35,021 nucleotides of DNA from a virus. Its lineage: Duplodnaviria > Caudoviricetes. How positions within the stretch are numbered: the first letter of the stretch is position 1; every line of letters begins with the position of its first letter. The notes beneath the pieces are model-generated. The model did no database searches. It saw nothing but the letters and a program-made list of their open reading frames with translations, and was not told the origin of the DNA. This document shows, piece after piece, positions 15,351 to 34,963 of the stretch. Both the position numbers and the translations under genes were made by a program. The DNA lies in IMG/VR virus record IMGVR_UViG_3300035397_000030, positions 1-35,021 of that record; one strand, given 5' to 3'.

Positions 15351-15373
15351 ATTAAATTATAGGAGGATAAGAA

Positions 15374-15629: not shown

Positions 15630-15866
15630 ATGGATGATACAAAATATGCAAACCTTGGAACCAGAGGACATCTTACTGATGATGAAATTCTTAAGCAAGC
15701 ATCAAATGCTGGATACACTTTATTAGACGATAAGGACGGCTTCATGTGGTTCGCAAAGCGAATGAGTAAAACCATAACCAATAGACGAACGAATTTTGTA
15801 ATTATAAATAAGAAGAATAAAATTATAGGATACAGCGGACCTGGAGTTCCTCCTAGAATTTATTAA
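15630..15866 (+). CDS. hypothetical protein
   Basis: RBS motif at 15608-15622 supports the ATG at 15630. Confidence 0.7.
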   Translation: MDDTKYANLGTRGHLTDDEILKQASNAGYTLLDDKDGFMWFAKRMSKTITNRRTNFVIINKKNKIIGYSGPGVPPRIY

Positions 15867-15881
15867 AGAAAGGATGTTTAT

Positions 15882-16067
15882 ATGAAATTTATAACTTATG
15901 AACCATCTCTAGAATTTGGAGATAATGCTATATTTGAGGGTGTTGTCGCAAAAATAAATACAAAATTTAATGCTAAACTCGAGGCAACTGGTGTGGTTAC
16001 GGCCGAAGAAGTTATTGAATCTTTATTGGAAGAATTGGGATACGAACCTACTACTTATATTTTTTAA
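15882..16067 (+). CDS. hypothetical protein
   Basis: 61 aa, acidic, AAGGA RBS. Confidence 0.65.
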   Translation: MKFITYEPSLEFGDNAIFEGVVAKINTKFNAKLEATGVVTAEEVIESLLEELGYEPTTYIF

Positions 16068-16070
16068 TTT

Positions 16071-16098
16071 CGCGAAAAAAACATATGCTATAATAGAA
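16071..16098 (+). promoter_or_regulatory. CGCG-N14-TATAAT motif, copy 15
   Basis: cgcg aaaaaaacatatgc tataat agaa. Confidence 0.8.
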
Positions 16099-16159
16099 GG
16101 TCATACACTGAATATCAGTAGGTGTTGGTAGTAGCAATATTACATGGCTTTCTATTTTT
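16095..16159 (+). ncRNA. candidate structured small RNA or leader (three-way junction)
   Basis: AGAAGGTCAT/ATGGCTTTCT encloses ACTGA/TCAGT and GTGTTG/CAATAT hairpins, followed by ATTTTT. Confidence 0.45.
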
Positions 16160-16197
16160 GCAACTATTAATTTTTTATCACAAAGGAGGACATAGAA

Positions 16198-16488
16198 ATG
16201 TCTAATGAAACCACTGTAGAAAAAACACCAATTGAGGAGATAAAACTTTTTGTAAAACAAAATGAAAAACTCCTAATAGCACTCGGGAGCTCGCTAACCA
16301 CATCATTAGTAATGGGTATTTTTATGAAAAAAATCACCAAAAATGTTTATAAAAAAGGGTTCTATCATGGTGGAATAAATGGGTTCTTTATAGCTCAGAG
16401 CTGGTTTGATGAAACCTTGGGTACTGATCTTGTAGCTATGTATAAAACATGGGCTGAAGCTAATCCGGACAAACTAACCACTTTTTAA
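16198..16488 (+). CDS. single-TM protein
   Basis: 96 aa, AAGGAGG RBS, hydrophobic segment. Confidence 0.75.
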   Translation: MSNETTVEKTPIEEIKLFVKQNEKLLIALGSSLTTSLVMGIFMKKITKNVYKKGFYHGGINGFFIAQSWFDETLGTDLVAMYKTWAEANPDKLTTF

Positions 16489-16515
16489 TAGTCTAACTCT
16501 TGAAAGGAGAATAAG

Positions 16516-17451
16516 ATGATTTGTTTCTACCACAACGATGCGGACGGTCAAATGTCCGCGATGTGGATAATGGCGTATGCTTATAAGGACGCCTTTGTCC
16601 CCAGATATATACCAATGCAATATGGGGATGAATTTCCTCTAGATAAAATAAACGAAAACGAATATGTCTATATTGTTGACTACAGCCTGGACATTGAAGT
16701 AATGAATACTTTATTACTTTCAAAAACTAAGAATGTTGTATGGATAGACCACCATAAAACAGCAATAGAGAAATATGAAAATTATCCTTTCTATATAAAA
16801 GGTTTGCGTTATGATGGTATTGCTGCTTGTGAATTAACATACGCATATCTTATGAAGATGACCGAATATCTTGGTACGGGCGCATTATTAGCTGATTTCG
16901 ATCCGGAAATGGTTGAGGATTGTCCTATGCATACTCGTTATATTGGAGACCGCGATGTTTGGAAATATCAATTTGGAGACCTTACTAGATTATTCTATGA
17001 TGGTTATCAATTGTTAAATCACGATATAAATAACCTGTATCATACATTTTTGCTGATGTATAATGCGGAGAACGTCGTAGACCTTTTAATAGATAATGGC
17101 GTAATCATAGGCCAATACAAGAAAAATATGAGAACGAAATCGATAGCCAACTATGCATATACCGCTATATTTGAGGATCAATTATGTTTAGTATGTAATT
17201 GTCAGGACAGAACCTCGGAATTATTTGGCGAGTATTTTAAAAAATATCCACTATGTATAGCATATGTACAGGTAGCAAACGGATATTCGGTTAGTCTATA
17301 TTCCGCTTATCTGGACGTTAGCGAGCTCGCCAAGAAGCATGGGGGCGGAGGACATAAAGGCGCTGCAGGATTTGTTTCTCAAAAATCACTGGATGAATTA
17401 TTTACAGACCGTACACCATTCACAGAAACTACAAAAGTTATGGAGGAGTAA
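16516..17451 (+). CDS. DHH/DHHA1 family phosphoesterase
   Basis: Motifs YHNDADG, YIVDYS, WIDHH and C-terminal GGGGHKGAAG. Confidence 0.92.
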   Translation: MICFYHNDADGQMSAMWIMAYAYKDAFVPRYIPMQYGDEFPLDKINENEYVYIVDYSLDIEVMNTLLLSKTKNVVWIDHHKTAIEKYENYPFYIKGLRYDGIAACELTYAYLMKMTEYLGTGALLADFDPEMVEDCPMHTRYIGDRDVWKYQFGDLTRLFYDGYQLLNHDINNLYHTFLLMYNAENVVDLLIDNGVIIGQYKKNMRTKSIANYAYTAIFEDQLCLVCNCQDRTSELFGEYFKKYPLCIAYVQVANGYSVSLYSAYLDVSELAKKHGGGGHKGAAGFVSQKSLDELFTDRTPFTETTKVMEE

Positions 17452-17453
17452 CT

Positions 17454-17717
17454 ATGAAAAATATAAACATCGTATTAAACAAAAGCTTTAAATATGGTAA
17501 ATTCATAAAGCCAGCCACAGTATTAATGGCAAAAAAATACCCACACATATCAGATGGAATCAGGGATAAAGCTATCCTTGAGCTTGCACAAGATTTGTGG
17601 ATCGGTTCTCAGTTAACTAAAGGTAAATATATTGCATCTGGTGTTATTATTGGTGCGGCAGTTACTTATTTTTATCTTAAGAATACTGAGAAAAAGAGCG
17701 AAGAAGTTTCCGAATAA
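17454..17717 (+). CDS. membrane protein, paralog of 8269..8568
   Basis: GKFIKPA...DLWIGSQLTKGKY followed by a TM helix. Confidence 0.75.
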   Translation: MKNINIVLNKSFKYGKFIKPATVLMAKKYPHISDGIRDKAILELAQDLWIGSQLTKGKYIASGVIIGAAVTYFYLKNTEKKSEEVSE

Positions 17718-17720
17718 CTT

Positions 17721-17748
17721 CGCGAAAAAAACACACCTTATAATAGAA
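17721..17748 (+). promoter_or_regulatory. CGCG-N14-TATAAT motif, copy 16
   Basis: cgcg aaaaaaacacacct tataat agaa. Confidence 0.8.
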
Positions 17749-17778
17749 GTTAAAAAAAATCTTAGGAGGATTATATCA

Positions 17779-18084
17779 ATGGAAGAAAATACAGTAGTAG
17801 AAGTAGTATCAACAGAGGTAGCAATAGTTAAAGAAGACGGCAAATTCAAGAAATTTGTGAACGGAACAAAGAAAGTAGCAAAAAAAGCGAAACCATTTGT
17901 CTTGACAGCATTAGCGGCATCAGCCGTGACGGTTGTTGGACTAATAGTATTAGCAACAAAAAGTGAAAAATCTGAGGAACCCGACACAAGTGTTGAAGTT
18001 GACGACGACGTAATTGAAGGTTACACAGTTGAGAAAGACGAAACACCAGTAGTCTTTATTGAAGACGAACCACAAGAAAATTAA
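17779..18084 (+). CDS. single-TM protein with acidic tail
   Basis: AGGAGG RBS supports the ATG at 17779 (MEENTVVEVV...); basic patch, TM, D/E-rich C-terminus. Confidence 0.8.
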   Translation: MEENTVVEVVSTEVAIVKEDGKFKKFVNGTKKVAKKAKPFVLTALAASAVTVVGLIVLATKSEKSEEPDTSVEVDDDVIEGYTVEKDETPVVFIEDEPQEN

Positions 18085-18090
18085 CAACCA

Positions 18091-18129
18091 AAGAGTATTA
18101 TACGAAAGTATAGTGCTCTTTTTTTCTTT
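18091..18129 (+). terminator. intrinsic terminator
   Basis: AAGAGTATTATAC-gaaa-GTATAGTGCTCTT followed by a T run. Confidence 0.75.
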
Positions 18130-18158
18130 CAAAAAATTATACAAAGGAGAATAATATT

Positions 18159-18749
18159 ATGCTAGAAGAAATTAAAAAGATTCGAGAGTATCTCAGTTAT
18201 CTTGAGGAGCATGTCTGTAATGTTAAATGGGCATGGGAAAAAATGATTGATATATTTGGATTTGAGGAATTTGTGCAGGATCCTTATATGTTCGGACGTA
18301 TCAGTAAGTTGATTGCCAACCATGATGCGAGTAAAATATCGGATGTTGAATTTGATCCTTATCGCAGACATTTCTACCCGACATTTGATGAGCAAATGAT
18401 TGATGCGAAGTATGTTACAACCAAACAGTATTATGACGATATGTATGAAGCGGCTTGGCAAGCTCACCTAACTCTCAATCCTCATCATTGGGAGAACTGG
18501 ACTAAGCTATATGATGTTGGTGCATCAGAAAAAGACATAGCTATTCATATTATAACGATGCTTTGTGATTGGATTGCTATGGCAAGATTTAATGGAGGAA
18601 CAGCTCTTAAATGGTATGAGGAAAATAAGCAGACAATTATGATTCCGCAGTTCGCTCACGACCTTGTTAGTGAACTTCTCACTGAGTTCTACAAATCCCC
18701 ATTCGTATTATATAGGGTAGAAGGTGGCGACTATGAAAGTAATCAATAG
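18159..18749 (+). CDS. HD-superfamily (DUF5662-like) phosphohydrolase
   Basis: H...HDASK...H...NPHHWE...MLCDW metal-binding pattern. Confidence 0.75.
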   Translation: MLEEIKKIREYLSYLEEHVCNVKWAWEKMIDIFGFEEFVQDPYMFGRISKLIANHDASKISDVEFDPYRRHFYPTFDEQMIDAKYVTTKQYYDDMYEAAWQAHLTLNPHHWENWTKLYDVGASEKDIAIHIITMLCDWIAMARFNGGTALKWYEENKQTIMIPQFAHDLVSELLTEFYKSPFVLYRVEGGDYESNQ

Positions 18750-19476
18750 TTTATTTAAATATTGTAGAGACCATTCTTCAACGGTTCTAACGGCAGTATC
18801 TATTGGTGGATTATTTGCTACAACAGCTTCGGCAATTGTTGGAACGCCTAAGGCTATTAGGATACTTGAAGAGCGTGAGTATTTCCTAGCTGAGGAAGGT
18901 CTACCCCCATTATCAAACTGGGGTGTTGTAAAGGAGACATACAAATGTTATATTCCCACATTTGGTTTCTTAACGTTGACAACCGCTTGTATGGTTGGCG
19001 CGAATAAGATAAGTATGAACCGTTATGCAGCACTGGCATCATTATATGCTTTCACTGATACTGCTTACAAGGAATACCGATATAAGGTTGCTGAGACGCT
19101 TGGGGATTCTGTACATAAGCAGATAAGGGGCGACATCGCTAAAGACCATATAGTTAAGAAACCGGCTCGCGACAACTCAGTGATTATAATAGGCTCTGGC
19201 GATATATTATGCTTTGATGACTTATCCGGACGATATTTCAAAAGCTCCCGAGCGCATATTATAGATGCAATAAATAATTGTAATCGACAATTAATGAGGG
19301 ATATGCGTATTACAATTAATACATTCTATCAAGAACTAGGTCTCCCAGATATTGGTATCGGCGATTCTGTTGGTTGGGATATTGATAACGGATTCATAGA
19401 CGTAACTATATCTTCAACAATTGATCCAGACGGTAATCCAGCATTAGCTCTTATATACGATGCGGAGCCGATTTAA
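18733..19476 (+). CDS. DUF6353-like membrane protein, paralog of 21905..22837
   Basis: STVLTAVSIGG...TPKA, second TM, AALASLY, and a C-terminal INTFYQELGLP...VGW pattern. Confidence 0.75.
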   Translation: MKVINSLFKYCRDHSSTVLTAVSIGGLFATTASAIVGTPKAIRILEEREYFLAEEGLPPLSNWGVVKETYKCYIPTFGFLTLTTACMVGANKISMNRYAALASLYAFTDTAYKEYRYKVAETLGDSVHKQIRGDIAKDHIVKKPARDNSVIIIGSGDILCFDDLSGRYFKSSRAHIIDAINNCNRQLMRDMRITINTFYQELGLPDIGIGDSVGWDIDNGFIDVTISSTIDPDGNPALALIYDAEPI

Positions 19477-19480
19477 TATT

Positions 19481-19504
19481 CGCGAAAAAAACATGTGGTA
19501 TAAT
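19481..19504 (+). promoter_or_regulatory. CGCG-N14-TATAAT motif, copy 17
   Basis: cgcg aaaaaaacatgtgg tataat gata. Confidence 0.75.
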
Positions 19505-19543
19505 GATAAATATTAATTTAGATTAAAAATGGAGGATTTAAAA

Positions 19544-19756
19544 ATGAAAAATTTAAAAACATTAGTAGTAACGAACAAAGGAAGAATAGGTAAAACTGGT
19601 CTTGTGTTAGGTTTGTTAGGATTGGGTGCATTTGCAGTGACACACTTTCTTAAGAAAGCCGAGGACGAGAAAGTTTATGCTGAGTATCCTGAAGAGGATG
19701 ATGACGACATGGATTTTGAAGATGATTTTGAAGAAACTGAGCCAGAAGAAGTTTAA
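19544..19756 (+). CDS. single-TM protein with very acidic tail
   Basis: GGAGG RBS supports the ATG at 19544; tail contains EEDDDDMDFEDDFEE. Confidence 0.75.
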   Translation: MKNLKTLVVTNKGRIGKTGLVLGLLGLGAFAVTHFLKKAEDEKVYAEYPEEDDDDMDFEDDFEETEPEEV

Positions 19757-19774
19757 TTGGTAACTATCAAAATT

Positions 19775-19805
19775 GGAAGATTAAGGAAACTTAGTCTTCT
19801 TTTTT
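19775..19805 (+). terminator. intrinsic terminator (variant of 7131/7822)
   Basis: GGAAGATTAAG-gaaa-CTTAGTCTTCT followed by a T run. Confidence 0.7.
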
Positions 19806-19825
19806 CTCTTGAAAGGAGAGATATT

Positions 19826-20035
19826 ATGTTTGGAAAAGCCACTAAAAAATTAGTAGTACAAGCAAGCGAAGCAGTTAAAGAAGAATTTAAAGAAGAGATT
19901 GATGCATTCAAAATTATTGCCGGGGTGTCAATTGTCCTAAACGTTCTATTATTATTTCAGAATCATAAGCTAAAGATTCCTGTACAACCTCAGATGAATC
20001 CAGTTACTGTTATATTTGCGCCACCAACGCGATAA
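19826..20035 (+). CDS. single-TM protein
   Basis: RBS motif at 19805-19819 supports the ATG at 19826 (MFGKATKK...). Confidence 0.7.
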   Translation: MFGKATKKLVVQASEAVKEEFKEEIDAFKIIAGVSIVLNVLLLFQNHKLKIPVQPQMNPVTVIFAPPTR

Positions 20036-20055
20036 AAACATATGATATAATAGAA
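20028..20055 (+). promoter_or_regulatory. CGCG-N14-TATAAT motif, copy 18
   Basis: cgcg ataaaaacatatga tataat agaa. Confidence 0.8.
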
Positions 20056-20075: not shown

Positions 20076-20363
20076 ATGAATAAAATTAAAGTAGTACGGA
20101 CAATTGGTAAAGGTATCTCAGCAGCAGCTGTAGGGGTCGTTACCGTAGGAGTTGGAGCGATTGGAAAGAACATCATGCTAAACAATTTACCAAAAATGCC
20201 ATGGCACATACAAGTGTGCACTAATATGGCAGCTTTAGTAATTGGAGCAATGATGGTTGACAAAGTCACTGACTACTGCGTAGCGCCCATAGAGAAGACT
20301 GTGGATGACGTTGCCGAGGCTGTAGTTGCAGACATTGAGGAAGCAGAAGAAACTAAAATTTAA
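20076..20363 (+). CDS. two-helix membrane protein
   Basis: 95 aa, Gly/Ala-rich hydrophobic helices, AAGGAGG RBS, followed by an AAAGGAGTGG/CTATTCCTTT terminator. Confidence 0.8.
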   Translation: MNKIKVVRTIGKGISAAAVGVVTVGVGAIGKNIMLNNLPKMPWHIQVCTNMAALVIGAMMVDKVTDYCVAPIEKTVDDVAEAVVADIEEAEETKI

Positions 20364-20433
20364 AAGTTTTAAAAGGAGTGGGACAAACGTTCTATTCCTT
20401 TTTTCCACTATAATATATTTGAAGGAGAATAAT

Positions 20434-21105
20434 ATGAGTAGAGTACCAATGAAAGTTGATGGCGGTCCTTACGGATCAAAAAGAACAGATGTGAACTATC
20501 CTAGCAACAGTGATAAATCTAAAAGAGAAGCTTCAGAACCAGGAAAAGAACCAGCAAAATTAGCCCCTGTAGTAAAAGGGAAGACTGTTCGAAAGAAAAA
20601 GGGTTTCTTTTCTAAAGCTAAAGATGTATTTATTGGCGAAGATGTTGAAAATGTTGGCGAATACATCATGTATGATGTAGTTATACCAGCTGTAAAAAAC
20701 ACAATTGCTGATTTAATAATTGGTAGTATTAGTATGACCTTATTTGGTGATGCAAAGCATACTACAAATACTTATCGCGATAAAGGTAAGTCTTATGTAT
20801 CTTATAATAATTATTATAAGAATAAAGAGTCCGGAAGACAACAAAGGACTGTAAATAAAAGAGCGATGCATTCATTTGATGATATAATTCTCGAATCAAA
20901 AGGTGAAGCTGAGCAAGTATTGGATTTAATGGTGGATAGAGTTCTTGATTATGACCGAGCAAGTGTGGCTAATCTATATGACCTTGTGAATATGAACTCC
21001 ACGTGGCAAGACCATAAATTTGGTTGGGAAGACTTAAGCTCCGCATATGTTAGTAGGGTTCGCGAAGGTTATTTATTAGTTCTACCTAAACCTATAGAAT
21101 TGTAG
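20434..21105 (+). CDS. phage hypothetical protein
   Basis: AAGGAGA RBS supports the ATG at 20434; C-terminal domain is shared with 21638..21886. Confidence 0.8.
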   Translation: MSRVPMKVDGGPYGSKRTDVNYPSNSDKSKREASEPGKEPAKLAPVVKGKTVRKKKGFFSKAKDVFIGEDVENVGEYIMYDVVIPAVKNTIADLIIGSISMTLFGDAKHTTNTYRDKGKSYVSYNNYYKNKESGRQQRTVNKRAMHSFDDIILESKGEAEQVLDLMVDRVLDYDRASVANLYDLVNMNSTWQDHKFGWEDLSSAYVSRVREGYLLVLPKPIEL

Positions 21106-21310: not shown

Positions 21311-21693
21311 GGAAAGTAAATATTAACCCATACACCGATACAAGGCCTGTAGTAATGGCCTTACGAGCTAATGCGGTTGGTACACCTCCGGCAATAACAG
21401 ATGTCTGGGGTGTATTAAAATATCGCAAGTTATGTAAGGACTCCGCTGATGTTATAGACCGATTAGTAGCATTACAGATGACTCACGAAAAAGCCCTCCA
21501 ACTTCTAATGAAGCAATTAGATATGGGCATAGTTAAGCGTCAAGAATTCCTAAATATCATAAGAAGTGTTTATGCTGAGAATGGTAAGGATGTTGATGAT
21601 ATTTATGGTACATTTTCAAATTTAGAAGGAGAAAACGATGATAAAACAAATGACGTTTCAGTCAGCGCATCAAGCGAACAAAGTTCTAAATAA
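21307..21693 (+). CDS. hypothetical protein
   Basis: 128 aa, ATGA overlap with the upstream stop. Confidence 0.7.
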   Translation: MRKVNINPYTDTRPVVMALRANAVGTPPAITDVWGVLKYRKLCKDSADVIDRLVALQMTHEKALQLLMKQLDMGIVKRQEFLNIIRSVYAENGKDVDDIYGTFSNLEGENDDKTNDVSVSASSEQSSK

Positions 21694-21886
21694 ATTGACC
21701 GAGCGGGCCGACTACTGCGGACACGCAACAGTTGCTGATTTATATGAAGCATCAGGTAAAAAAAATGACCGCCCTAATTATGAATATGGGTGGTTAGCAC
21801 AAGATATGAACAAGGCTTATATCGAGCATTTTAACGATAGACACACATTAAGGCTACCAGAACCAAGACAAATCGACGAAATATAA
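21638..21886 (+). CDS. standalone copy of the C-terminal domain of 20434..21105
   Basis: ATVADLYE...YGW...AYIE...LRLPEP aligns with ASVANLYD...FGW...AYVS...LVLPKP. Confidence 0.75.
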   Translation: MIKQMTFQSAHQANKVLNKLTERADYCGHATVADLYEASGKKNDRPNYEYGWLAQDMNKAYIEHFNDRHTLRLPEPRQIDEI

Positions 21887-21904: not shown

Positions 21905-22837
21905 ATGGTATGCAAATTAGCAGGAAATTGTAAGTATTTGGCAAAAGCCATGCAGACAAGCAGCAGATTATTTGTATTAGGTAAAAAAGCAAGCCCAACT
22001 ATATTTTTAGGGTTGGGTATTATTGGTGTAGTAGGTAGTGCTATTGGCGCTTGTGCCGCTACATTAAAAGTTGAAAGTGTAATGGATGAGGCTAAAGAAA
22101 AGATAGACAAAATTCATTATGCTAAGGAAAATTTCCCGGAAGAGAAATATAGCGAAGAAGATATGAAAAAAGATCTAATGATAACATATGTGCAAACAGG
22201 TGTTGCGTTCGCTAAGTTATATTGGGGGCCAGTAACCATTGGTACCTTATCAATTATTAGTATTGTTGGTAGTAATCGTATTCTTCAAAATCGTAATGTG
22301 GCACTAGCAGCTGCGTACAAGGCTGTATCCGAAGGCTTCGCTCAATATCGCTCAAGAGTAGTTAAGGATGTAGGTGTTGAGAAGGACCGCGAATATCGCT
22401 ATGGCTACAAAGAAGAAAAATATATTGATCAAGAGACTGATGCGGACGGTAATATAACTAATATTGAAAGAACTAAAAAAGTGTATGACCCTAATAATGT
22501 ATCTATATATGCTAGATTCTATGATGAGACTAGTACCGCATGGTCTAAAACTCCTGAATATAATTTAGTATTCTTGAAGAATAATCAAGCGATGGCGAAT
22601 GACCTTCTACATGCTAGAGGACATTTATTCTTGAACGAAGTATATGATATGTTAGGTCTACCAAGGTCACAAGCAGGTCAAGTTGTTGGTTGGGTTATAT
22701 CTAAAGACGGAGATAATTATGTCGACTTTGGATTGGCTAATCTTGACAACGAACGAATGAGAGCTTTTGTAAATGGCTACGAGCATACGGTCTTATTAGA
22801 CTTTAATGTTGACGGGGTTGTTTACGATTTGATATGA
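21905..22837 (+). CDS. DUF6353-like membrane protein
   Basis: SPTIFLGLGIIG...ACAATLK, RNVALAAAY, and C-terminal FLNEVYDMLG...GQVVGW...LLDFNVDG. Confidence 0.8.
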   Translation: MVCKLAGNCKYLAKAMQTSSRLFVLGKKASPTIFLGLGIIGVVGSAIGACAATLKVESVMDEAKEKIDKIHYAKENFPEEKYSEEDMKKDLMITYVQTGVAFAKLYWGPVTIGTLSIISIVGSNRILQNRNVALAAAYKAVSEGFAQYRSRVVKDVGVEKDREYRYGYKEEKYIDQETDADGNITNIERTKKVYDPNNVSIYARFYDETSTAWSKTPEYNLVFLKNNQAMANDLLHARGHLFLNEVYDMLGLPRSQAGQVVGWVISKDGDNYVDFGLANLDNERMRAFVNGYEHTVLLDFNVDGVVYDLI

Positions 22838-25449: not shown

Positions 25450-28400
25450 ATGGATTTTTATCAAATAAAAGAAAGGAGTACTAAAAATGGTATCATTGAA
25501 GTATATCCTGATTTTAAAGTTGGACGCTCAAAAGACTTAATGGTTAGAGGGAAAGCCTTTTATGCTATATGGGACGAAGAGCAAAAATTATGGTCAACAG
25601 ATGAGTATGATGTACAACGGTTAGTTGATCAAGATGTGCGAGAGCATAAAGAAAAAATTCAAAGTAGAACTGATGGGATAGTTCATGCTAAATTAATGAG
25701 TGATTTCTCTTCAAAAATATGGACAGAGTTTCGATACTATATTGCGCATATATCGGATAATTCACATCAATTAGATGAAGAGTTAACTTTCTCCAACACT
25801 ATATTAACAAAAAAACATTATGCAAGTAAGCGATTACCATATCCATTAGTTACAGGACCTATTGAATCATATGAATTAATAATGTCCACATTGTATGACG
25901 AAGAAGAGCGCCAAAAACTTGAATGGGCTATTGGCGCAGTTGTTACCGGCGAAGCTAAACATATTCAAAAATTTATAGTTTTATATGGAGAGTTTGGTTC
26001 TGGTAAATCAACCTTTATAAATATTATGTTAAAATTATTTCAAGGGTATTACACAACCTTCGAGGCTAAATCTTTAACCGCCTCAGCAAACCAATTTGCA
26101 ACTGAAGTATTTAAACAGAATCCATTAATAGCTATACAACATGATGGTGATTTAAGTAAGATAGAGGATAACTCTAAATTAAATAGTATTATATCTCACG
26201 AAGAGATGACTATGAATGAAAAGTATAAACCATCATATATGTCTAGAATTAATGCCTTTTTATTTATGGCTACAAATCGTCCGGTTAAGATAACGGATGC
26301 TAAGTCTGGTATTATTAGAAGACTCATAGATGTTAAACCGTCTGGTAGAAGAATCACGCCTCATAAATATGAAGCCGCTATGGCTCATATAGATTTTGAG
26401 TTGGGTGGAATCGCTACACATTGCGCAGATGTTTTTAATAATATGGGTAAGAATTATTACAACAATTATAAACCTTTAGATATGATATTCAAAACGGATG
26501 TATTCTTTAACTTCGTTGAGAGTAATTACTACATATTCAAGGATTCAGAAGGCGTCTCATTAAAACAAGCTTATACTATGTATAAAGAATATTGTGATGA
26601 TGCGCTTACGGGTTTTAAATTACCACTTCATAAATTTAGAGAAGAGCTTAAAAACTATTTTGGTGGTTTTGATGATGTTGCTAGAATTGACGGAAAACAA
26701 ATCCGCAGTTACTATACTAACTTCTTAACTGAGAAATTCAGTGCTTTAGCAGCAATAGTAGAAGAAAAACCTTTAAGTTTAGTTTTAGAACATAGTGATT
26801 CATTATTAGATGAACAATGTGGATCCTGTTTAGCTCAATATTCTAATAAATATGAAACACCAAATGTCCAATGGGCTAATGTTAAAACTACATTATCTAA
26901 AATAAATACAAGAAAATTACATTTTGTAAAGATTCCAGAGAACCATATTGTTATAGATTTTGACATACAAGATGACGATGGTAAAAAATCTTTAGAAAAG
27001 AATATAGAAGCAGCTTCTAAATGGCCACCAACATATGCGGAGTTTAGTAAGTCTGGGCAAGGTATTCATCTACATTATATATATGATGGTGATGTTGATT
27101 TATTATCTAACATTTATGAGCCGCATATTGAAATAAAAGTTTTTAAGGGTAACAGTTCTCTTAGAAGAAAATTGACAAAATGTAATAATATACCGATTCA
27201 GACTATTAACTCCGGATTACCATTGAAAGGAGAAAAAGTGATAAACTTTGAAGCGGTTAAAAGTGAAAGAGTTTTAAGAAATCTTATTGAAAAAAATCTA
27301 AGAAAAGAAATACATCCAGGGACAAAACCTTCAATGGATTTTATTAATAAGATATTAACCGACGCGTATGAATCAGGTTTACATTATGATATTACAGATA
27401 TGCGTCCGAGAATATTAGCATTTGCTAATAATAGTACCAATCAATCAGCAGCCTGTTTAAAATTAGTAACAGAGATGCCTTTTCGTAGTGCGGAACCAAG
27501 TCCTCCAGGAAATGATGATTCGGCAGAAATAGCTTTCTATGACGTCGAAGTATTTCCAAATCTATTTGTTATAGATTGGAAGTTTAGAGGGAAACCACAT
27601 CATGTATCTTTAATAAATCCTAAACCTAAAGATATTGAAGAATTATTGAAATTAAAATTAGTTGGTTTTAATTGTAGAAGGTATGACAATCATATATTAT
27701 ATGCTGCTTATATAGGGTATAATAATGAACAATTGTTCCAATTAAGTCAAAAGATTATTAATAGTAGTGAGAATGCAATGTTTAGTGAAGCTTATAATAT
27801 TTCATATACAGACATTTATGATTTCTCATCTATTAAACAAAGTCTGAAAAAATTTGAGATTGATTTAGGAATACACCATTTAGAATTAGGTTTGCCATGG
27901 GAAGAACCGGTTGATCCATCCCTGTGGCAAAAAGTAGCAGATTATTGTAAAAATGACGTCGATGCCTCAGAAGCAGTATTTGAGGAAAGATATCAAGATT
28001 TTGTAGCCAGACAAATATTGGCTGAGCTAAGTAATTTAACATTAAATGACACAACCCAAAAACATGCCGAAAGAATAATGTTTGGAACAGACCCAAATCC
28101 TCAAAGTAAATTTGTTTATACAGATTTAAGCGAGATGTTTCCAGGTTATAAATATGAGCGAGGTAGGAGTCTATATAGAGGTGAAGACCCTAAAGAAGGT
28201 GGTTATGTTGATGCTACCCCAGGTATGTATGGTAATGCCGCATTATTAGACGTAGCTTCCATGCATCCTAACAGTGGTATAAATCTCAATATATTCGGAC
28301 CATATACTCATAAATTAAAAGAATTAGTTGATGCTCGTATTGCTATCAAACATAATGATTATGCTAGTGCTAGAAAAATGTTAGGCGGAATACTCGAAAA

Positions 28401-29388
28401 GTATTTAATAAAAGAGGACCCAGAAGAAGCTGGAGCTTTATCTTATGCTTTAAAGATAGTTATTAACATTATCTATGGTTTAACATCAGCTAAATTCCCT
28501 AACAAGTTCAAAGACCCACGTAATGTAGATAATATAGTTGCTAAGCGTGGCGCATTATTTATGATTGATTTAAAACATGCAGTAAAAGAACAAGGTTATA
28601 CCGTTGCTCATATTAAAACAGATTCAATTAAGATTCCAGATGCGACGCCAGAGATTATCGAATTTGTTATGGAGTTTGGTAGAAAATATGGGTATACATT
28701 TGAGCATGAGGCAACATATGATAAATTCTGCCTAGTAAATGATGCAGTATATATCGCCAAATATGGTTGGGCGGCTAAGAGTAAATTAATAAATACATGG
28801 ACCGCAACAGGTACACAATTTAAACAACCTTATGTATTTAAAACATTATTTAGTCATGAGCCATTAGTCTTCGCTGATTTTTGTGAAACTAAGACTGTAA
28901 AAACTTCTCTATATTTGGATATGAATGAAAACCTACCAGATGTAACAATGTATGAAAAAGAATTAGAAGAAAGAATTAAAGACGAAAAAGATAATGTACC
29001 AATCTCTAGGATGACCGCCAATAGAAAAAAACACCCAGAACTAATTAATATTAGTATGGAAGAACTAGAAGCGCTCATTGCGTCTGGTCATAATTATCAT
29101 TTCGTTGGGAAAGCCGGAGCGTTTACACCAATAAAAGAAGGCGCTGGTGGAGGAAAACTTTTAAGAAAAAGTGATAACACGTATTACTCAGCAACTGGAG
29201 CTAAAGATTATCGATGGTTAGAATCTGAAATGGTTCTCGCTCTTAATAAAGAGAAAGATATTGATATGTCGTATTATGAGTTATTAGCTTCTAATGCTAA
29301 AAAAGATATTAATAACTTTGGCGATTTTGATTGGTTTGCGTCAGAACAGCCATATGATATTAATGATAATTGGATACTACCATTTTAG
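25450..29388 (+). CDS. multifunctional replicase: SF3/D5-like helicase, AEP-like primase, 3'-5' exonuclease and family B DNA polymerase
   Basis: Walker A GEFGSGKS; primase-like VIDFD and SKSGQGIHLHY; exonuclease FYDVEVF, GFNCRRYD and YCKNDV; PolB motifs LDVASMHP, KIVINIIYG and KTDS. Confidence 0.9.
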   Translation: MDFYQIKERSTKNGIIEVYPDFKVGRSKDLMVRGKAFYAIWDEEQKLWSTDEYDVQRLVDQDVREHKEKIQSRTDGIVHAKLMSDFSSKIWTEFRYYIAHISDNSHQLDEELTFSNTILTKKHYASKRLPYPLVTGPIESYELIMSTLYDEEERQKLEWAIGAVVTGEAKHIQKFIVLYGEFGSGKSTFINIMLKLFQGYYTTFEAKSLTASANQFATEVFKQNPLIAIQHDGDLSKIEDNSKLNSIISHEEMTMNEKYKPSYMSRINAFLFMATNRPVKITDAKSGIIRRLIDVKPSGRRITPHKYEAAMAHIDFELGGIATHCADVFNNMGKNYYNNYKPLDMIFKTDVFFNFVESNYYIFKDSEGVSLKQAYTMYKEYCDDALTGFKLPLHKFREELKNYFGGFDDVARIDGKQIRSYYTNFLTEKFSALAAIVEEKPLSLVLEHSDSLLDEQCGSCLAQYSNKYETPNVQWANVKTTLSKINTRKLHFVKIPENHIVIDFDIQDDDGKKSLEKNIEAASKWPPTYAEFSKSGQGIHLHYIYDGDVDLLSNIYEPHIEIKVFKGNSSLRRKLTKCNNIPIQTINSGLPLKGEKVINFEAVKSERVLRNLIEKNLRKEIHPGTKPSMDFINKILTDAYESGLHYDITDMRPRILAFANNSTNQSAACLKLVTEMPFRSAEPSPPGNDDSAEIAFYDVEVFPNLFVIDWKFRGKPHHVSLINPKPKDIEELLKLKLVGFNCRRYDNHILYAAYIGYNNEQLFQLSQKIINSSENAMFSEAYNISYTDIYDFSSIKQSLKKFEIDLGIHHLELGLPWEEPVDPSLWQKVADYCKNDVDASEAVFEERYQDFVARQILAELSNLTLNDTTQKHAERIMFGTDPNPQSKFVYTDLSEMFPGYKYERGRSLYRGEDPKEGGYVDATPGMYGNAALLDVASMHPNSGINLNIFGPYTHKLKELVDARIAIKHNDYASARKMLGGILEKYLIKEDPEEAGALSYALKIVINIIYGLTSAKFPNKFKDPRNVDNIVAKRGALFMIDLKHAVKEQGYTVAHIKTDSIKIPDATPEIIEFVMEFGRKYGYTFEHEATYDKFCLVNDAVYIAKYGWAAKSKLINTWTATGTQFKQPYVFKTLFSHEPLVFADFCETKTVKTSLYLDMNENLPDVTMYEKELEERIKDEKDNVPISRMTANRKKHPELINISMEELEALIASGHNYHFVGKAGAFTPIKEGAGGGKLLRKSDNTYYSATGAKDYRWLESEMVLALNKEKDIDMSYYELLASNAKKDINNFGDFDWFASEQPYDINDNWILPF

Positions 29389-31128: not shown

Positions 31129-31156
31129 CGCGTCAAATACATATGCTATAATAGAA
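31129..31156 (+). promoter_or_regulatory. CGCG-N14-TATAAT motif, copy 19 (upstream of the nuclease-RNAP cluster)
   Basis: cgcg tcaaatacatatgc tataat agaa. Confidence 0.8.
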
Positions 31157-32022: not shown

Positions 32023-34707
32023 ATGACAGAGTTTCTCAAACACGAAGGTACAAAGCGACACTCTGGAAGATATCCTTGGGGTTCAGGAGATACGCCTTAT
32101 CAAAGTGATAAAAATTTTATAGCTTATGTTAATGATTTAAAAAGAAAAGGCCTTAGCGATAAAATGATTGCTGATGGTATAGGCTGGAAGGTTAATGAAT
32201 TAAGAGCAAATAAATCAATAGCGACTAACTCTGTTAGAAAAGAAGATTTAGCCACGGCTTCTAAATTAAAAGCTAAAGGTTATTCCGACACAGCTATTGG
32301 ATTGAAAATGGGTAAAAATGAATCTTCTATTAGAAGTTTATTAAATGCCGAAACCAAAGCACGCAAAGAAGTCACCGAAGCAACTGCCAATATGTTAAAG
32401 GAAAATTTGGAAAGAAAACAATATTTAGACATAGGCGCTGGAGTAGAGAGACATATCGGTCTAAATAGAACAAAATTTAGAACTGCCGTTGCAATGCTAG
32501 AAGAAGAAGGATACACAACCCATTATATTCCAGTAACCCAATTAGGAACCGGTAAAGTAACAACATTGTTTGTACTTGCTAAACCAGGAACTACTTGGTC
32601 TGAAGTTTCTAAGAATAGGGCAGAGATAAAACAAATAAAAGATTATACTGAAGATGGTGGAAGATCTTTCTTAGGTCTAGAACCAATAAGAAGTATTGAT
32701 TCAAAACGACTTACGATAAACTATGCCGAAGATGGTGGAACAAAAAAAGATGGAGTTATCGAACTTCGTCGAGGCGTAGATGATATATCGTTAGGAAGAG
32801 CTAGATATGCTCAAGTTCGTATTGGGGTTGATGATAAACATTTTCTAAAAGGAATGGCCGTATATGCTGATGACCTACCGCCAGGAATTGATATTAGATT
32901 CAACACCAACAAGTCAAAAACAACCCCTTTTGATAAGGTTTTAAAACCTATGAAAGAATTAGATGGCGATATAGATTCTGACAATCCTTTTGGTTCTACC
33001 GTAAAACAAAGACATTATATTGATAAAGATGGTAATAAAGCGCTGTCTGCAATAAATATGGTGTATGAAGAAGGTAACTGGAAAGAATGGTCCAGAAGTC
33101 TATCATCACAAGTATTATCTAAACAACATCCTTCGTTAGCTAAAAAACAATTAGATTTAGCTTTTGATATTAAAAAAGCAGAATATGATGAAATAATGGC
33201 TCTAGATAATCCTGTTGTTAAGAAAAAATTATTAGATACATTTGCTGATGACTGTGATTCTGCAGCTGTACATTTGAAAGCTGCCGCACTACCTAGACAA
33301 GGGTCACATGTTATATTACCATTTCCAAATATGAAAGAGAATGAAATATATGCTCCTAATTATAGAGATGGCGAAACAGTTGTTCTTATAAGATATCCTC
33401 ATGGAGGAACCTTTGAGATACCACAACTAACCGTTAATAATAATTATGCCCCTGCTAAAAAGATATTAGGAAATCAATCTCCTGACGCTGTTGGTATTAA
33501 CCATAAAGTTGCAGAAAGACTATCTGGTGCCGATTTTGATGGAGATACTGTATTAGTAATACCAAATCCTGATGGTAAAGTAATAAAGAGCACCGCCCCA
33601 TTAAAAGGGCTTATAGATTTTGATCCTAAAGCTTTATATAAGTTACCAGATAGCGCACCTAGAGTTAAAGTTACTACTAAGAATGCAGAAATGGGTAAAG
33701 TATCAAACCTTATTGCTGATATGTCTATGAAAGGCGCTAATGATGGAGAGATTGCTCGTGCTGTTAAACATAGTATGGTTGTAATTGATTCAGAGAAGCA
33801 TCATTTAGATTATAAACAATCAGCAATAGATAATGATATAGCTGGATTAAAAACGAAATACCAAGGTGGCGCTAGAAAAGGTGCTTCTACCGTAATATCA
33901 AGAGCTTCCTCAGATGCAAGGCCACTAGCAAGAAAAGATGGTGTTGAAGTAGTAAATCCGGAAACAGGTAAAGTTAAACGTGTGTATGTCGACCCCGAAA
34001 CAGGTAAAAAATTATACACCTACACAGGTGAAAGTTATGTTAATATTAAAGGGAAGACGGTTATGCGTACAACTAAGTCCACCAAGATGTACGAGGCGGA
34101 TGATGCTTTTAGTTTATCCTCCGGCACTACAATGGAGACTGTTTATGCAACCCATGCCAATAAACTCAAGGCTTTAGGTAATGAGACTAGAAAGAGCGCT
34201 ATTGCAGCAGCTTCAAGCTTCACTAAGTCAGACCCTAATGCTAAGAAAGAGTATGCTAAAGAAGTAGCTAGTCTTAAAGCTAAACTTAATATCGCCCTAT
34301 TGAACGCCCCATTAGAAAGACAAGCCCAATTACTAGCTAATGCTGTAGTTGCATCTAGAAAGGCCGCTAATCCAGACATGGATGCTGATGACCTTAAGAA
34401 AGTTAAAGGTCAAGCTTTAGCAGAACAGCGTGCACGTATTGGCGCAGGCAAAGAGCGTGTTCCAGTAACACCAGAAGAATGGAATGCTATTCAGAAAGGT
34501 GCTATAAGTACTAATCTATTGAAGAGTATACTAGACAACACAGACCTTGATGTAATCAAACAGTATGCTACACCTAGAGTTTCTAATGGTTTAACCCCAG
34601 TTCAATCAACACGTGCTCGCAACATGCTTGCTAATGGTTACTCACAAGCAGACATCGCCGAGTTCTTAGGAGTTTCAACTAATAGTATTAATTCTATTGC
34701 TAATTAG
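32023..34707 (+). CDS. putative single-subunit double-psi-beta-barrel RNA polymerase with fused HTH domains
   Basis: LSGADFDGD (DxDGD, 33526-33546), upstream LIRYPH (RxP) and QVR...LKG; HTH-like segments near the N-terminus and at the C-terminus (GYSQADIAEFLGVSTNSI). Confidence 0.78.
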   Translation: MTEFLKHEGTKRHSGRYPWGSGDTPYQSDKNFIAYVNDLKRKGLSDKMIADGIGWKVNELRANKSIATNSVRKEDLATASKLKAKGYSDTAIGLKMGKNESSIRSLLNAETKARKEVTEATANMLKENLERKQYLDIGAGVERHIGLNRTKFRTAVAMLEEEGYTTHYIPVTQLGTGKVTTLFVLAKPGTTWSEVSKNRAEIKQIKDYTEDGGRSFLGLEPIRSIDSKRLTINYAEDGGTKKDGVIELRRGVDDISLGRARYAQVRIGVDDKHFLKGMAVYADDLPPGIDIRFNTNKSKTTPFDKVLKPMKELDGDIDSDNPFGSTVKQRHYIDKDGNKALSAINMVYEEGNWKEWSRSLSSQVLSKQHPSLAKKQLDLAFDIKKAEYDEIMALDNPVVKKKLLDTFADDCDSAAVHLKAAALPRQGSHVILPFPNMKENEIYAPNYRDGETVVLIRYPHGGTFEIPQLTVNNNYAPAKKILGNQSPDAVGINHKVAERLSGADFDGDTVLVIPNPDGKVIKSTAPLKGLIDFDPKALYKLPDSAPRVKVTTKNAEMGKVSNLIADMSMKGANDGEIARAVKHSMVVIDSEKHHLDYKQSAIDNDIAGLKTKYQGGARKGASTVISRASSDARPLARKDGVEVVNPETGKVKRVYVDPETGKKLYTYTGESYVNIKGKTVMRTTKSTKMYEADDAFSLSSGTTMETVYATHANKLKALGNETRKSAIAAASSFTKSDPNAKKEYAKEVASLKAKLNIALLNAPLERQAQLLANAVVASRKAANPDMDADDLKKVKGQALAEQRARIGAGKERVPVTPEEWNAIQKGAISTNLLKSILDNTDLDVIKQYATPRVSNGLTPVQSTRARNMLANGYSQADIAEFLGVSTNSINSIAN

Positions 34708-34723: not shown

Positions 34724-34963
34724 ATGAGAGAAGTAATGCTTACCACCCTTGATAATCCTTTCGACCCATTCACACAATCTGATGATTGGTATGCGTTTGA
34801 CGAGAGTAAAGGTTATCATAGCTGTGGTTATATAGCCCGTATCGCTAGAACATCCCCTGAATTAGGAGAAGAAGATGAACTTCGAGAGATTGAAAAGGCT
34901 ATTGATGAGATTGTAGACCTTAATGTCTTAGGAATCTACAAAAAAGTAGTAAAAGAAATATAA
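34724..34963 (+). CDS. phage hypothetical protein
   Basis: AAGGAG RBS supports the ATG at 34724; MLTTLDNPFDPF...W...D..KGY. Confidence 0.75.
   Translation: MREVMLTTLDNPFDPFTQSDDWYAFDESKGYHSCGYIARIARTSPELGEEDELREIEKAIDEIVDLNVLGIYKKVVKEI

Follow-up and report, generated by a model that had tools for sequence, protein, structure and literature searches.

A putative single-chain two-barrel RNA polymerase with fused DNA-binding modules and a promoter-like motif in an uncultured phage

The window, that is, the whole stretch of 35,021 nucleotides analyzed here, encodes an 894-amino-acids-long protein that is likely a DNA-dependent RNA polymerase recognizing its own promoters via fused DNA-binding modules. 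According to the predicted structure, the protein almost certainly adopts a two-barrel fold, and it is very likely an active polymerase. DNA-templated transcription of phage genes by this enzyme is quite probable, while its reading of a TCGCG-N14-TATAAT motif found in the window is slightly favored. The enzyme transcribing all cellular genomes has minimal relatives in the single-chain two-barrel RNA polymerases, and bench or structural work could be found in the literature for only a handful of these. The present family is very large, yet it is almost always labeled as a DNA-binding protein only, and it occurs in easily grown phage-host pairs of Lactococcus, Arthrobacter, Gordonia, and Streptomyces. 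As the promoter-like motif is sharply defined, sigma-free promoter recognition is directly testable on a short DNA template using the purified protein. If such a test succeeded, the polymerase and its promoter would form a compact pair and reveal how promoter DNA is located and opened by a minimal two-barrel enzyme.

Polymerase gene and family assignment

The ATG of the polymerase gene was located 3 nt past the stop codon of the exonuclease gene upstream (Table 1). A profile search matched the full-length protein to PHROG 4291 ('RNA-dependent RNA polymerase'; E = 0, 1222.6 bits), where protein residues 3–892 aligned to profile positions 10–904 of 909. When the polymerase was used as a tblastn query, 250 phage records were matched, 249 of them at full length; the phage records listed shared 36–55% identity, and none of them exceeded 60%. 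At least 8000 protein clusters matched the family, and approximately 4900 viral stretches were estimated to carry a polymerase match. The sequence-only reading of this DNA had anticipated that such a protein could easily be annotated only as an HTH protein. This was indeed the case, as nearly all of the 40 tblastn records listed were labeled 'helix-turn-helix DNA binding domain protein' or 'hypothetical protein', and HTH_3 was the sole Pfam family over the cut-off. NCBIfam contained no model matching either the polymerase or the small downstream ORF.

The members of PHROG 4291 include ORF75 of Lactococcus phage 1706 (40% identity to the present polymerase), a 'putative RNA polymerase' of Faecalibacterium phage FP_oengus, and proteins labeled 'HTH DNA-binding domain protein' from actinophages infecting Arthrobacter, Gordonia, Streptomyces, Microbacterium, and Curtobacterium. 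Compared to these members, the present copy is from a contig of an uncultured phage with a low GC content (about 35%), and it is without the extra HTH insertions of some relatives. Phage 1706 ORF75 was listed as YonO-like by Ruprich-Robert and Thuriaux in 2010 (PMC2919709); the available text of that paper places the 1706 protein in one of five 'YonO-like' families and regards the 1706 group and that of YonO as distant relatives only. The YonO-like grouping of the present polymerase is taken from this source. A 2021 preprint by Koert et al., as far as its accessible text goes, considers members of this 'HTH protein' family, which have the same domain plan, to be probable RNA polymerases. The present polymerase is a further member of a family already in print and in PHROGs, and the novelty that the sequence-only reading had implied is lost to the 2010 and 2021 publications and PHROG 4291. 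For the studied DNA alone, the outcome is the correct annotation of a known family. A literature search for a bench test of the polymerase family found none.

Table 1. Features of the polymerase gene, its neighbor, and the motif sites in the window
Feature	Location	Strand	Basis
Thirteen motif sites; most after a hairpin plus T-run and before a small gene	5887..10368	+	motif scan
Five further motif sites, starts 15323, 16071, 17721, 19481, 20028	15323..20051	+	motif scan
Motif site before the VRR-NUC / exonuclease / polymerase gene run	31129..31152	+	motif scan
Polymerase gene, 894 aa, predicted single-chain two-barrel with HTH modules	32023..34707	+	ORF list, PHROG, AF2 model
Conserved, disordered N-terminal peptide (FLKHEG..HSGRYPWGSG), residues 1–25	32023..32097	+	pLDDT < 50, alignment, regex scan
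Two tri-helical HTH modules with long helices between, residues 29–132	32107..32418	+	AF2 model, fold searches
Winged-helix domain, residues 134–200	32422..32622	+	fold search
First beta-barrel (beta/Rpb2-like), residues 222–350; invariant D243, Q264-V265-R266, K276-G277	32686..33072	+	alignment, model, fold alignment
Second beta-barrel (beta'/Rpb1-like), residues 421–530; R457-x-P459-H460, metal-binding loop D504-F-D506-G-D508	33283..33612	+	alignment, VIA-align, Pfam
Helices and small beta domain, residues 531–735, still aligned with QDE-1 and RDR2	33613..34227	+	VIA-align
C-terminal helical modules, residues 813–894, the last being an HTH (864–893)	34459..34704	+	Pfam, AF2 model
Small acidic 79-aa ORF, PHROG 4303, right after the polymerase gene	34724..34963	+	PHROG, neighborhood survey

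Predicted fold and catalytic core

The AF2 model of the polymerase (mean pLDDT 84.7, pTM 0.75), together with the Foldseek and VIA-align searches, revealed two barrels arranged as in solved two-barrel (double-psi beta-barrel) RNA polymerases. Foldseek gave 26 matches at E ≤ 0.001, and every row listed was an RNA polymerase, ranks 11, 14, 15, 17, and 18 being unlisted further chains of the same entries; the leading matches were QDE-1 (2j7n_B, 3.3e-9) and phage P32 gp64 (8f72, 1.4e-7), followed by RDR2. VIA-align gave the highest scores for RDR2 (7w82; Z 16.5, 342 aligned, rmsd 4.4) and QDE-1 (2j7n_A; Z 16.0, 378 aligned, model residues 223–734), then P74 gp62 (Z 12.8) and P32 gp64 (Z 12.7). The core matching QDE-1, RDR2, and the Thermus-phage polymerases spanned residues 222–734 (Z 12.7–16.5), and Rpb1-type subunits were aligned against residues 418–620 (Z about 9.5). 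These matches of the model to QDE-1, RDR2, and Thermus-phage gp64/gp62 bear out the minimal two-barrel polymerase core that had been proposed from the letters alone. Of the folds suggested there for comparison, QDE-1 was a strong Foldseek match, while crAss phi14:2 gp66 was a weak one (E 5.9e-3, probability 0.44).

A full-length sequence profile searched against solved structures returned HTH and designed-repeat matches only, with no solved polymerase reaching significance. The core-only profile gave nothing significant, the best match being the catalytic loop of P23-45 gp96 (E 0.6). RdRP (PF05183) was the Pfam family nearest to the polymerase core; it covered residues 495–598 only at 16.9 bits (E 0.0027), under its gathering cut-off of 23.8 bits, and it could be detected at E ≤ 0.01 in 17 of 28 polymerase relatives (best 3.9e-6).

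The motifs quoted in the sequence-only reading could all be located in the protein. VVLIRYPH occurred once, at residues 453–460, and AERLSGADFDGDTVLV was found at 497–512 with DFDGD at 504–508; the two starts were 44 residues apart, where a spacing of about 40 had been given. YAQVRIG (262–268) and LKGM (275–278), the earlier QVR...LKGM motif, each occurred once. The two GxSDxxI-type segments of the N-terminal part, GLSDKMIADGIG (43–54) and GYSDTAIGLKMG (86–97), were each present once, as was the C-terminal HTH segment GYSQADIAEFLGVSTNSI (872–889). In an alignment of 72 sequences, with relatives at 48–72% identity, residues D243, Q264, V265, R266, K276, G277, R457, P459, H460, and S501 through D508 were invariant in 72/72, in agreement with the expected conservation of the aspartates and RxP in homologues. 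This invariance indicates that the quoted motifs are beyond chance. The beta-like barrel contributes one acidic and two basic residues, which in Rpb2 are D837, K979, and K987 (PMC2919709, available text); D243, R266, and K276, invariant and placed in the first barrel of the model, may be their equivalents.

Public records give the protein an HTH label only, which would fit a catalytically dead polymerase fold now serving only as a large DNA-binding regulator. However, the three aspartates, the R-x-P, and the basic first-barrel residues were invariant in all 72 sequences despite identities of 48–72%. Retention of these residues would be unexpected once catalysis had been lost, and such a loss is scarcely credible.

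The PHROG label raises another reading, namely an RNA-dependent RNA polymerase making double-stranded or antisense RNA. The closest solved folds, QDE-1 and RDR2, are RNA-dependent enzymes, and RdRP is the nearest Pfam family. QDE-1 of Neurospora and plant RDR2 also share the barrel order of the present polymerase, and the DxDGD loop is described as common to RdRPs in the accessible text of Koert et al. (2021). Against this, the phage has double-stranded DNA, the protein has about five DNA-binding modules, and QDE-1 itself copies DNA too (PMC9508822, available text). P23-45 gp64 and gp96, which have the same fold, are described as transcribing phage genes in the part of PMC10770324 at hand, and both YonO (PMC5467207) and phi14:2 gp66 (PDB entry title) are DNA-dependent according to their titles. 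RNA-dependent synthesis is therefore highly improbable, and the template of the present polymerase is probably DNA, unlike that of QDE-1 and RDR2. The sequence identity to these two enzymes was 10–16% (VIA-align), and the present polymerase has HTH and winged-helix ends where they have eukaryotic N-terminal domains.

Among phage enzymes, the P23-45-type gp64 proteins of Thermus phages (P32 gp64, P74 gp62) are single-chain two-barrel polymerases like the present protein. The solved gp64-type chains have approximately 590 residues compared to 894 here, and helix-turn-helix modules go unmentioned in the available text of PMC10770324. YonO of Bacillus prophage SPbeta is likewise a single-chain DNA-dependent two-barrel RNA polymerase (PMC5467207, available text).

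DNA-binding modules at the protein ends

Fold searches with residues 71–114 recovered HTHs of the LsrR/SorC/DeoR, LuxR, and sigma domain 4 types (Z 6.5–8.3), and residues 109–202 matched the extended winged helix of TFIIIC tau138 (Z 8.3, 86 aligned) and GntR-type winged helices. The C-terminal modules matched HTH_3 in Pfam (E 5.4e-5), and Sigma70_r4_2 was found at residues 871–891 with 15.6 bits, below its cut-off of 25.7. The HTH domains had been described beforehand as sigma-like. They matched the types of the LuxR/sigma-region-4/resolvase class about equally: region 4 models were matched by 25 and 23 of 28 relatives, HTH_23, GerE, and resolvase HTH models equally so, and in the fold search, sigma domain 4 (Z 6.5–7.1) was level with many other HTH proteins. 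No Pfam match of the polymerase to Sigma-70 region 2 (Sigma70_r2) was listed at E ≤ 1, and a winged helix follows the N-terminal HTHs. By these matches, the protein falls outside the sigma-70 family, which is defined by region 2 together with region 4. The end modules are generic HTH and winged-helix domains, 'sigma-like' only in a generic sense.

Gene neighborhood

The polymerase gene closes the replication module, its neighbors being an exonuclease, a helicase, and a single-strand annealing protein. The order exonuclease, polymerase, small ORF was found at the right genome end, as in related phages, and the polymerase was the last large gene before this end in complete genomes. In 84/84 loci where the polymerase ORF was full, a homologue of the small ORF (PHROG 4303) began between −4 and +644 nt past the polymerase end, and the order of polymerase followed by small ORF was also seen in four named phages. 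A 1312-aa helicase-primase-polymerase protein encoded nearby carries primase-type and polymerase B-type domains. A primase reading of the 894-aa protein, prompted by the replication-module context, was dropped since this neighbor already has these domains.

Promoter-like motif and its co-occurrence with the polymerase

The motif tTCGCG-N14-TATAAT-AGAA precedes small genes as well as the polymerase operon. Over the whole window, CGCG-N14-TATAAT occurred at 19 sites on the plus strand, which is the gene strand, and at none on the minus strand, compared to 0.10 expected. An RBS and a start codon were located 24–53 nt downstream of 17 of the 19 sites. The same motif was seen approximately 0.9 kb upstream of the polymerase gene in five other loci (L004, L006, L062, L083, L086). 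The region 5500–10500 of the window was contained in eight DNA-type runs, all microbial mat metagenomes, and no RNA sequencing run containing it was listed.

When 25 viral records were picked by the motif alone, 19 of them encoded the polymerase, as did 10 of the 11 records that were at least 90% complete; five of the six motif-bearing records without polymerase were fragments. The remaining one (G018) is a complete record with a single motif match, probably a chance occurrence. It had been suspected to be the genome of the window itself, but a blastn comparison gave no similarity at E < 1e-20. Conversely, 20 records were picked by the polymerase alone, of which 19 contained a relaxed form of the motif and 16 had at least three matches on the polymerase strand. 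The relaxed motif gave 105 matches in these 20 records compared to 9 for a reversed-pattern control, while in four of them (G035, G042, G043, G044) the matches were not above the control. Arthrobacter phage Mooshroom, Gordonia phage TenaciousP, Streptomyces phage LibertyBell, and Lactococcus phage 1706, with genome GC from 34% to 59%, have the same motif architecture. The motif and the polymerase gene thus occur together in phages of two bacterial phyla (Firmicutes and Actinobacteria hosts). Promoter recognition built into the polymerase is plausible, since a conserved promoter-like motif travels with the polymerase gene; this link is a co-occurrence of sequences among related phages, which shared ancestry alone could give. 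According to the available text of PMC10770324, two polymerases of this kind are encoded by Thermus phage P23-45, and each is linked to a promoter motif of its own; these motifs are GC-rich or AT-rich, unlike TCGCG-N14-TATAAT.

Based on these observations, the HTH modules of the polymerase would bind the upstream half of the motif (TCGCR..TACA), and the polymerase would open the TATAAT half and synthesize RNA from the DNA template. Early and middle genes would in this way be transcribed without the host sigma factor.

The −10 consensus recognized by host primary sigma factors is likewise TATAAT, so the motif could also be read by the host polymerase, either alone or aided by a phage activator. 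The phage polymerase would then be real, but the motif would be read by host RNA polymerase, with the primary sigma at TATAAT and perhaps a phage activator on TCGCR..TACA, and the phage enzyme would have another task, for example transcribing late genes or making RNA at the replication origin. The perfect host-type −10 hexamer fits this explanation, and so does the gene position at the end of the replication module, as the final large gene at the right end of the genome would sit just upstream of the structural genes after circularization. However, the sites are without a TTGACA-like −35 or a TG extension, and only 2 of the 13 motif sites in 5500–11000 passed a sigma-70 hexamer scan. The conserved upstream half is shared by phages infecting Firmicutes and Actinobacteria, suggesting that its reader is encoded by the phage. 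No sigma domain was detected in the 41 other window ORFs scanned. A role in origin RNA synthesis is also at odds with the primase domain already present in the 1312-aa protein. Reading of the motif by the host enzyme is accordingly considered unlikely.

N-terminal peptide and the virion question

In the N-terminal peptide of the polymerase, H7, G9, S14–Y17, and G20–G22 were invariant across the 72-sequence alignment, and Pfam gave no match at E ≤ 1 for residues 1–50. The peptide resembles L-x-H-Y-G-x-x-G-M-K-W-G, with which head-module proteins of related phages begin; a regex scan detected this head-module peptide in 5/5 complete genomes and not once on the minus strands. Known virion RNA polymerases enter the cell together with the DNA. 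More tentatively than the preceding steps, the N-terminal peptide could load the polymerase into the capsid, from where it would enter the cell with the DNA. Carriage of the polymerase in the virion is hinted at by this peptide likeness and by the 'structural protein' label of Lactococcus phage 1706 orf75 in database annotation, and it is conceivable at somewhat less than even chances.

The motif at 31129, upstream of the operon of the polymerase itself, would fit a self-reinforcing middle-phase enzyme, namely a polymerase absent from the virion that is synthesized after infection, from transcripts depending on the host, and takes over middle expression via the motif. A close fold match, Thermus phage P23-45 gp64, is such a non-virion polymerase, while P23-45 gp96 is a tape-measure-fused virion RNA polymerase (PMC10770324, available text). 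On the other hand, no separate host-type promoter class was seen ahead of the motif-driven small genes, and both the annotation of 1706 orf75 and the peptide shared with head-module proteins speak for the virion. Synthesis only after infection is somewhat unlikely.

The fullest form of the own-promoter reading would be a sigma-independent, capsid-loaded, and injected polymerase that reads a cross-phylum TCGCR-N14-TATA(A/G)T motif, drives early and middle expression, its own operon included, and belongs to a very widespread phage lineage with Firmicutes and Actinobacteria hosts. Taken jointly, these parts make a possible but somewhat unlikely whole. The crAss-like phi14:2 gp66 also has the two-barrel fold; with 2166 residues, it is a virion-packaged RNA polymerase according to its PDB entry title, whereas packaging of the present polymerase is only hinted at.

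Fold and conservation of the polymerase core

The sequence-only reading had proposed a compact single-chain two-barrel RNA polymerase, and each motif that it quoted from the 894-residue ORF could be located once, where it had been placed. The AlphaFold2 model, based on an alignment of 72 relatives, had a mean pLDDT of 84.7 and a pTM of 0.75, with values <50 only at residues 1-25 and 209-217. A Foldseek comparison against the PDB revealed 26 matches at E ≤ 0.001; among the matches listed, all were two-barrel RNA polymerases, with QDE-1 (2j7n_B, 3.3e-9) and Thermus-phage P32 gp64 (8f72, 1.4e-7) as the best, and with P74 gp62, maize and Arabidopsis RDR2, and P23-45 gp96 also included. The matches absent from the listing, at ranks 11, 14, 15, 17, and 18, are additional chains of entries in it. 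The crAss-like phi14:2 gp66 (5.9e-3) ranked lower, followed by the largest subunits of cellular polymerases. VIA-align placed the match on model residues 222-734, with the closest similarity to RDR2 (7w82; Z 16.5, 342 aligned, rmsd 4.4) and QDE-1 (2j7n_A; Z 16.0, 378 residues aligned), followed by P74 gp62 (Z 12.8) and P32 gp64 (Z 12.7), while Rpb1-type subunits aligned on residues 418-620 (Z ~9.5). Sequence profiles alone gave no significant match to any solved polymerase.

The 72 relatives were at 48-72% identity; 19 came from the protein collection and 52 were translated viral loci, which had been thinned to <80% mutual identity. Invariant residues were D243, G244, R249, Y262, Q264, V265, R266, K276, and G277 in the first barrel, R457, P459, H460, and S501 through D508 in the second, and H7, G9, S14-Y17, and G20-G22 at the N-terminus. 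Since the model has both barrels and the aspartates are invariant, neither a missing barrel nor a variable aspartate, two of the grounds named for rejecting the proposal, was found. By fold, the protein is a genuine polymerase of the single-chain two-barrel kind that bears DNA-binding modules at both ends.

Features of the window and the polymerase
Feature	Position	Strand	Remark
Polymerase ORF	32023..34707	+	894 residues
VVLIRYPH	polymerase residues 453-460		single occurrence
AERLSGADFDGDTVLV	polymerase residues 497-512		single occurrence; DFDGD at 504-508
YAQVRIG	polymerase residues 262-268		single occurrence
LKGM	polymerase residues 275-278		single occurrence
GLSDKMIADGIG	polymerase residues 43-54		single occurrence
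GYSDTAIGLKMG	polymerase residues 86-97		single occurrence
GYSQADIAEFLGVSTNSI	polymerase residues 872-889		single occurrence
Extra HTH	after query residue 191		5/28 relatives: P0074, P0080, P0085, P0104, P0111
Extra HTH	near query residue 312		1/28 relatives: P0085
Extra HTH	near query residue 340		3/28 relatives: P0009, P0116, P0120
13 motif sites	5887..10368	+	most preceded by hairpin plus T-run
5 motif sites	15323..20051	+	
1 motif site	31129	+	upstream of VRR-NUC, exonuclease and polymerase genes
DUF6353 / PHROG 2152 proteins	18724..19476 and 21905..22837	+	
PHROG 4079, two matches	20326..21105 and fragment 21638..21886	+	
1312-aa protein	25450..29388	+	full-length match to PHROG 4210 'DNA polymerase'
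Small acidic 79-aa ORF	34724-34963	+	PHROG 4303; 3' of polymerase gene

Family assignment and prior reports

The polymerase matched PHROG 4291 ('RNA-dependent RNA polymerase') over residues 3-892 (E = 0). HTH_3 (867-893) was the only Pfam family above the cut-off; Pfam RdRP (PF05183) scored 16.9 bits at residues 495-598, below its 23.8-bit cut-off, and NCBIfam held no model for the protein. Among 50,697 phage records, tblastn revealed matches in 250, all at <60% identity and, in 249, over 80% or more of the query length, with host genera including Arthrobacter (95), Gordonia (55), Streptomyces (54), and Lactococcus (13). Among the 40 records listed, almost all carried the label helix-turn-helix DNA-binding protein or hypothetical protein, in line with the sequence-only reading, where annotation as an HTH protein only had been foreseen as a possibility. 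The large protein collection contained at least 8000 matches, and PF05183 was absent from the precomputed Pfam lists of all 120 matches listed; a degenerate-pattern scan of IMG/VR gave an estimate of ~4900 matching stretches.

In Ruprich-Robert and Thuriaux 2010 (PMC2919709), the phage 1706 protein is placed among five 'YonO-like' families, all of which retain the eight residues invariant in the active sites of two-barrel polymerases. The preprint of Koert et al. 2021 (bioRxiv 10.1101/842583) describes the family as the 'HTH domain-containing protein' of the actinobacteriophage supercluster, also present in the Lactococcus 1706 group and Faecalibacterium phage FP_oengus, with an HHpred match to PF05183 (95.68%), HTHs at both ends, and a DxDGD loop, and concludes that it may be an RNA polymerase. 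The polymerase reading of the PHROG 4291 family is thus already in print and catalogued, and the window copy adds a member; no bench study of the family was found in the literature search.

DNA-binding ends

Residues 26-206 were modelled on their own (pLDDT 91.0) and searched against 48,161 representative chains. A tri-helical HTH at residues 71-114 ties with LsrR/SorC (Z 8.3, rmsd 0.9, 44 aligned), with DeoR, Lrp/AsnC, resolvase, and LuxR-type proteins, and with sigma domain 4 (Z 6.5-7.1). Residues 109-202 are a winged helix whose closest match is the extended winged helix of TFIIIC tau138 (Z 8.3, 86 residues aligned), ahead of the GntR type. By sequence profile, the HTHs of NarL, lambda repressor, and resolvase were nearest to the N-terminal region, and sigma factors reached only E 0.13-0.27. 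Among 28 relatives, HTH_23 and HTH_3 were present in 28/28, Sigma70_r4_2 in 25, Sigma70_r4 in 23, and GerE and HTH_7 in 21 each; the Pfam matches listed for the polymerase included no sigma region 2. The earlier description as fused sigma-like HTH domains therefore stands for HTH ends of region-4 type, but sigma factors are not favoured over other HTH classes, and 'sigma-like' holds solely in that restricted sense.

Some relatives in alignment A1 carried extra HTH modules of ~35 residues. Their three different insertion places suggest that HTH modules of this family are readily gained and lost, like mobile cassettes.

A promoter-like motif in the window

A k-mer count on intergenic DNA singled out TATAATAG, with 18 copies on the + strand and two on the - strand (expected 4.8; maximum 12 in 100 shuffles), and its sites align across ~30 bases. 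The pattern CGCG-N14-TATAAT was found at 19 sites, on the + strand only, against 0.10 expected, with the consensus t..tttttt.tTCGCGaaaAAaaCaTatccTATAATAGAA. A ribosome-binding site and start codon followed within 24-53 bases at 17 of the 19. The region scanned around 13 of the sites contained 15 terminator-like sites vs 2.4 expected; only 2 of these 13 motif sites qualified in a sigma-70-type promoter scan, and none had a TTGACA-like -35 at proper spacing.

The genes at 5887-10368 (+) are a run of small genes with unassigned function, each with a terminator-like hairpin and T-run, the motif, and a strong ribosome-binding site, and the run looks like an early-gene cassette array. At 10029-10047 and 7183-7201, TATAATAG is followed 3 nt on by its own reverse complement (TATAATAGAA.CTATTATA), and this short palindrome sits directly downstream of the -10-like element.

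Co-occurrence of motif and polymerase

An IMG/VR scan for CGCG-N14-TATAATAGAA gave 131 stretches. Among records picked by the motif, 19 of the 25 searched encode the polymerase, as do 10 of the 11 with a completeness of 90% or more. G018, a record at least 90% complete that has the motif and lacks the polymerase, was unrelated to the window. In the reverse direction, 20 records picked by polymerase homology alone were searched with the relaxed pattern CRCR-N14-TATART, which matched in 19/20, with at least 3 matches on the polymerase strand in 16/20. There were 105 matches in total, 101 on the majority strand, vs 9 for the reversed-pattern control; in four records (G035, G042, G043, G044) matches did not exceed that control. 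Arthrobacter phage Mooshroom had ten exact sites (control 0).

Site alignments demonstrated a single architecture over genomes of 34% to 59% GC, in the forms TCGCGTAAATTACAaGGGgTATAAT (Mooshroom), cTCGCAnnAAtTACACgnCCTATAATGAGACCCC (Gordonia phage TenaciousP), CTCGCAGAAAAAACAcgCCCTATAaTGAGACCCC (Streptomyces phage LibertyBell), and CACAtgTTTTACATAcaCTATAGTAGAAAG (Lactococcus phage 1706). The ACA triplet, unspecified in the pattern, was present in 52/67 relaxed matches of six polymerase-bearing genomes vs 1/10 in G018. In the aligned genomes, the sites fall among small genes that lie past the lysis genes and ahead of, or among, the replication genes; the structural module is without them. For cluster AU phages of Arthrobacter, a preprint (10.1101/2020.01.10.891226) describes an intergenic repeat of 32 bp, located at 28.5-30 kb and read there as a recombination boundary; this is probably the same element.

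Co-occurrence in related phages is no proof that the polymerase reads the motif. That the upstream half of the motif is conserved between phages of two phyla nevertheless speaks for a phage-encoded reader, and no sigma-like protein was found among the 41 other window ORFs scanned. A sub-threshold winged-helix protein lies at 14789..15319.

The analysis shows the polymerase fold, the residues that never vary, and the enrichment of the motif. The most likely mechanism is inferred to be DNA-dependent transcription of early and middle genes: the enzyme would polymerize on a DNA template from TCGCG-N14-TATAAT sites, with its HTH and winged-helix modules standing in for a sigma factor there, and may arrive in the virion. 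A very common, mislabelled enzyme family thereby gains an explicit candidate promoter.

Possible virion association and the N-terminal peptide

GenBank labels Lactococcus phage 1706 orf75 'structural protein'. The disordered N-terminus of the polymerase (window 32023-32097) reads L-x-H-Y-G-x-x-R-x-S-G-R-Y-P-W-G-S-G and resembles a peptide, L-x-H-Y/H/R/K-G-V/I-x-G-M-K/R-W-G, of left-hand proteins in relatives; Pfam found nothing in residues 1-50. In 1706, Mooshroom, LibertyBell, TenaciousP, and the viral record G001, the peptide occurs at two to four places each in the left-hand 2-13 kb, the head-gene region, mostly at the protein start and sometimes repeated inside; 1706 orf7, also labelled structural, is one such protein. 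LibertyBell had one more regex match at 14 kb, outside the peptide consensus, and the minus strands of the five genomes had none. Within the window, which is without the head module, only the polymerase carries it. The peptide may be a capsid-loading signal. Together with the label of 1706 orf75, its presence supports, and does not establish, packaging of the polymerase in the virion.

Genomic neighbourhood

The 35,021-base window comprises one whole IMG/VR virus record, with an estimated completeness of 58%, and all its large ORFs lie on the + strand. The polymerase ATG follows the exonuclease stop after 3 bases. The order of exonuclease, polymerase, one small ORF, and right genome end is the same in four named phages and is matched by the window, which ends 58 bases past the small ORF. 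A homologue of this ORF lies 3' of the polymerase in 84/84 loci with a full polymerase ORF and in the four named phages, starting -4 to +644 nt from the polymerase end and within 130 nt in 72/84 loci. The 79-aa product, without a Pfam or NCBIfam match, may be a polymerase partner or regulator.

The 1312-aa protein had partial matches to P4-type primase and polymerase II-type models, with a DUF5906/P4-type primase-helicase region around residues 150-420 and resemblance to polymerase B around 915-1060. Given these and the PHROG 4210 match, it fits the same kind of fusion as 1706 gp55, which Kazlauskas et al. 2016 (PMC4889955) identify as a helicase-primase-polymerase B fusion. A duplicated gene pair, made up of the two DUF6353 / PHROG 2152 proteins and the two PHROG 4079 matches, occupies 18724-22837 (+).

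At 34964-35021, the record closes with short AT-rich repeats (TAATATAA-like) and then a nine-G run; since the polymerase sits at the right end in complete relatives, this segment may lie at the physical end of the genome or close to it.
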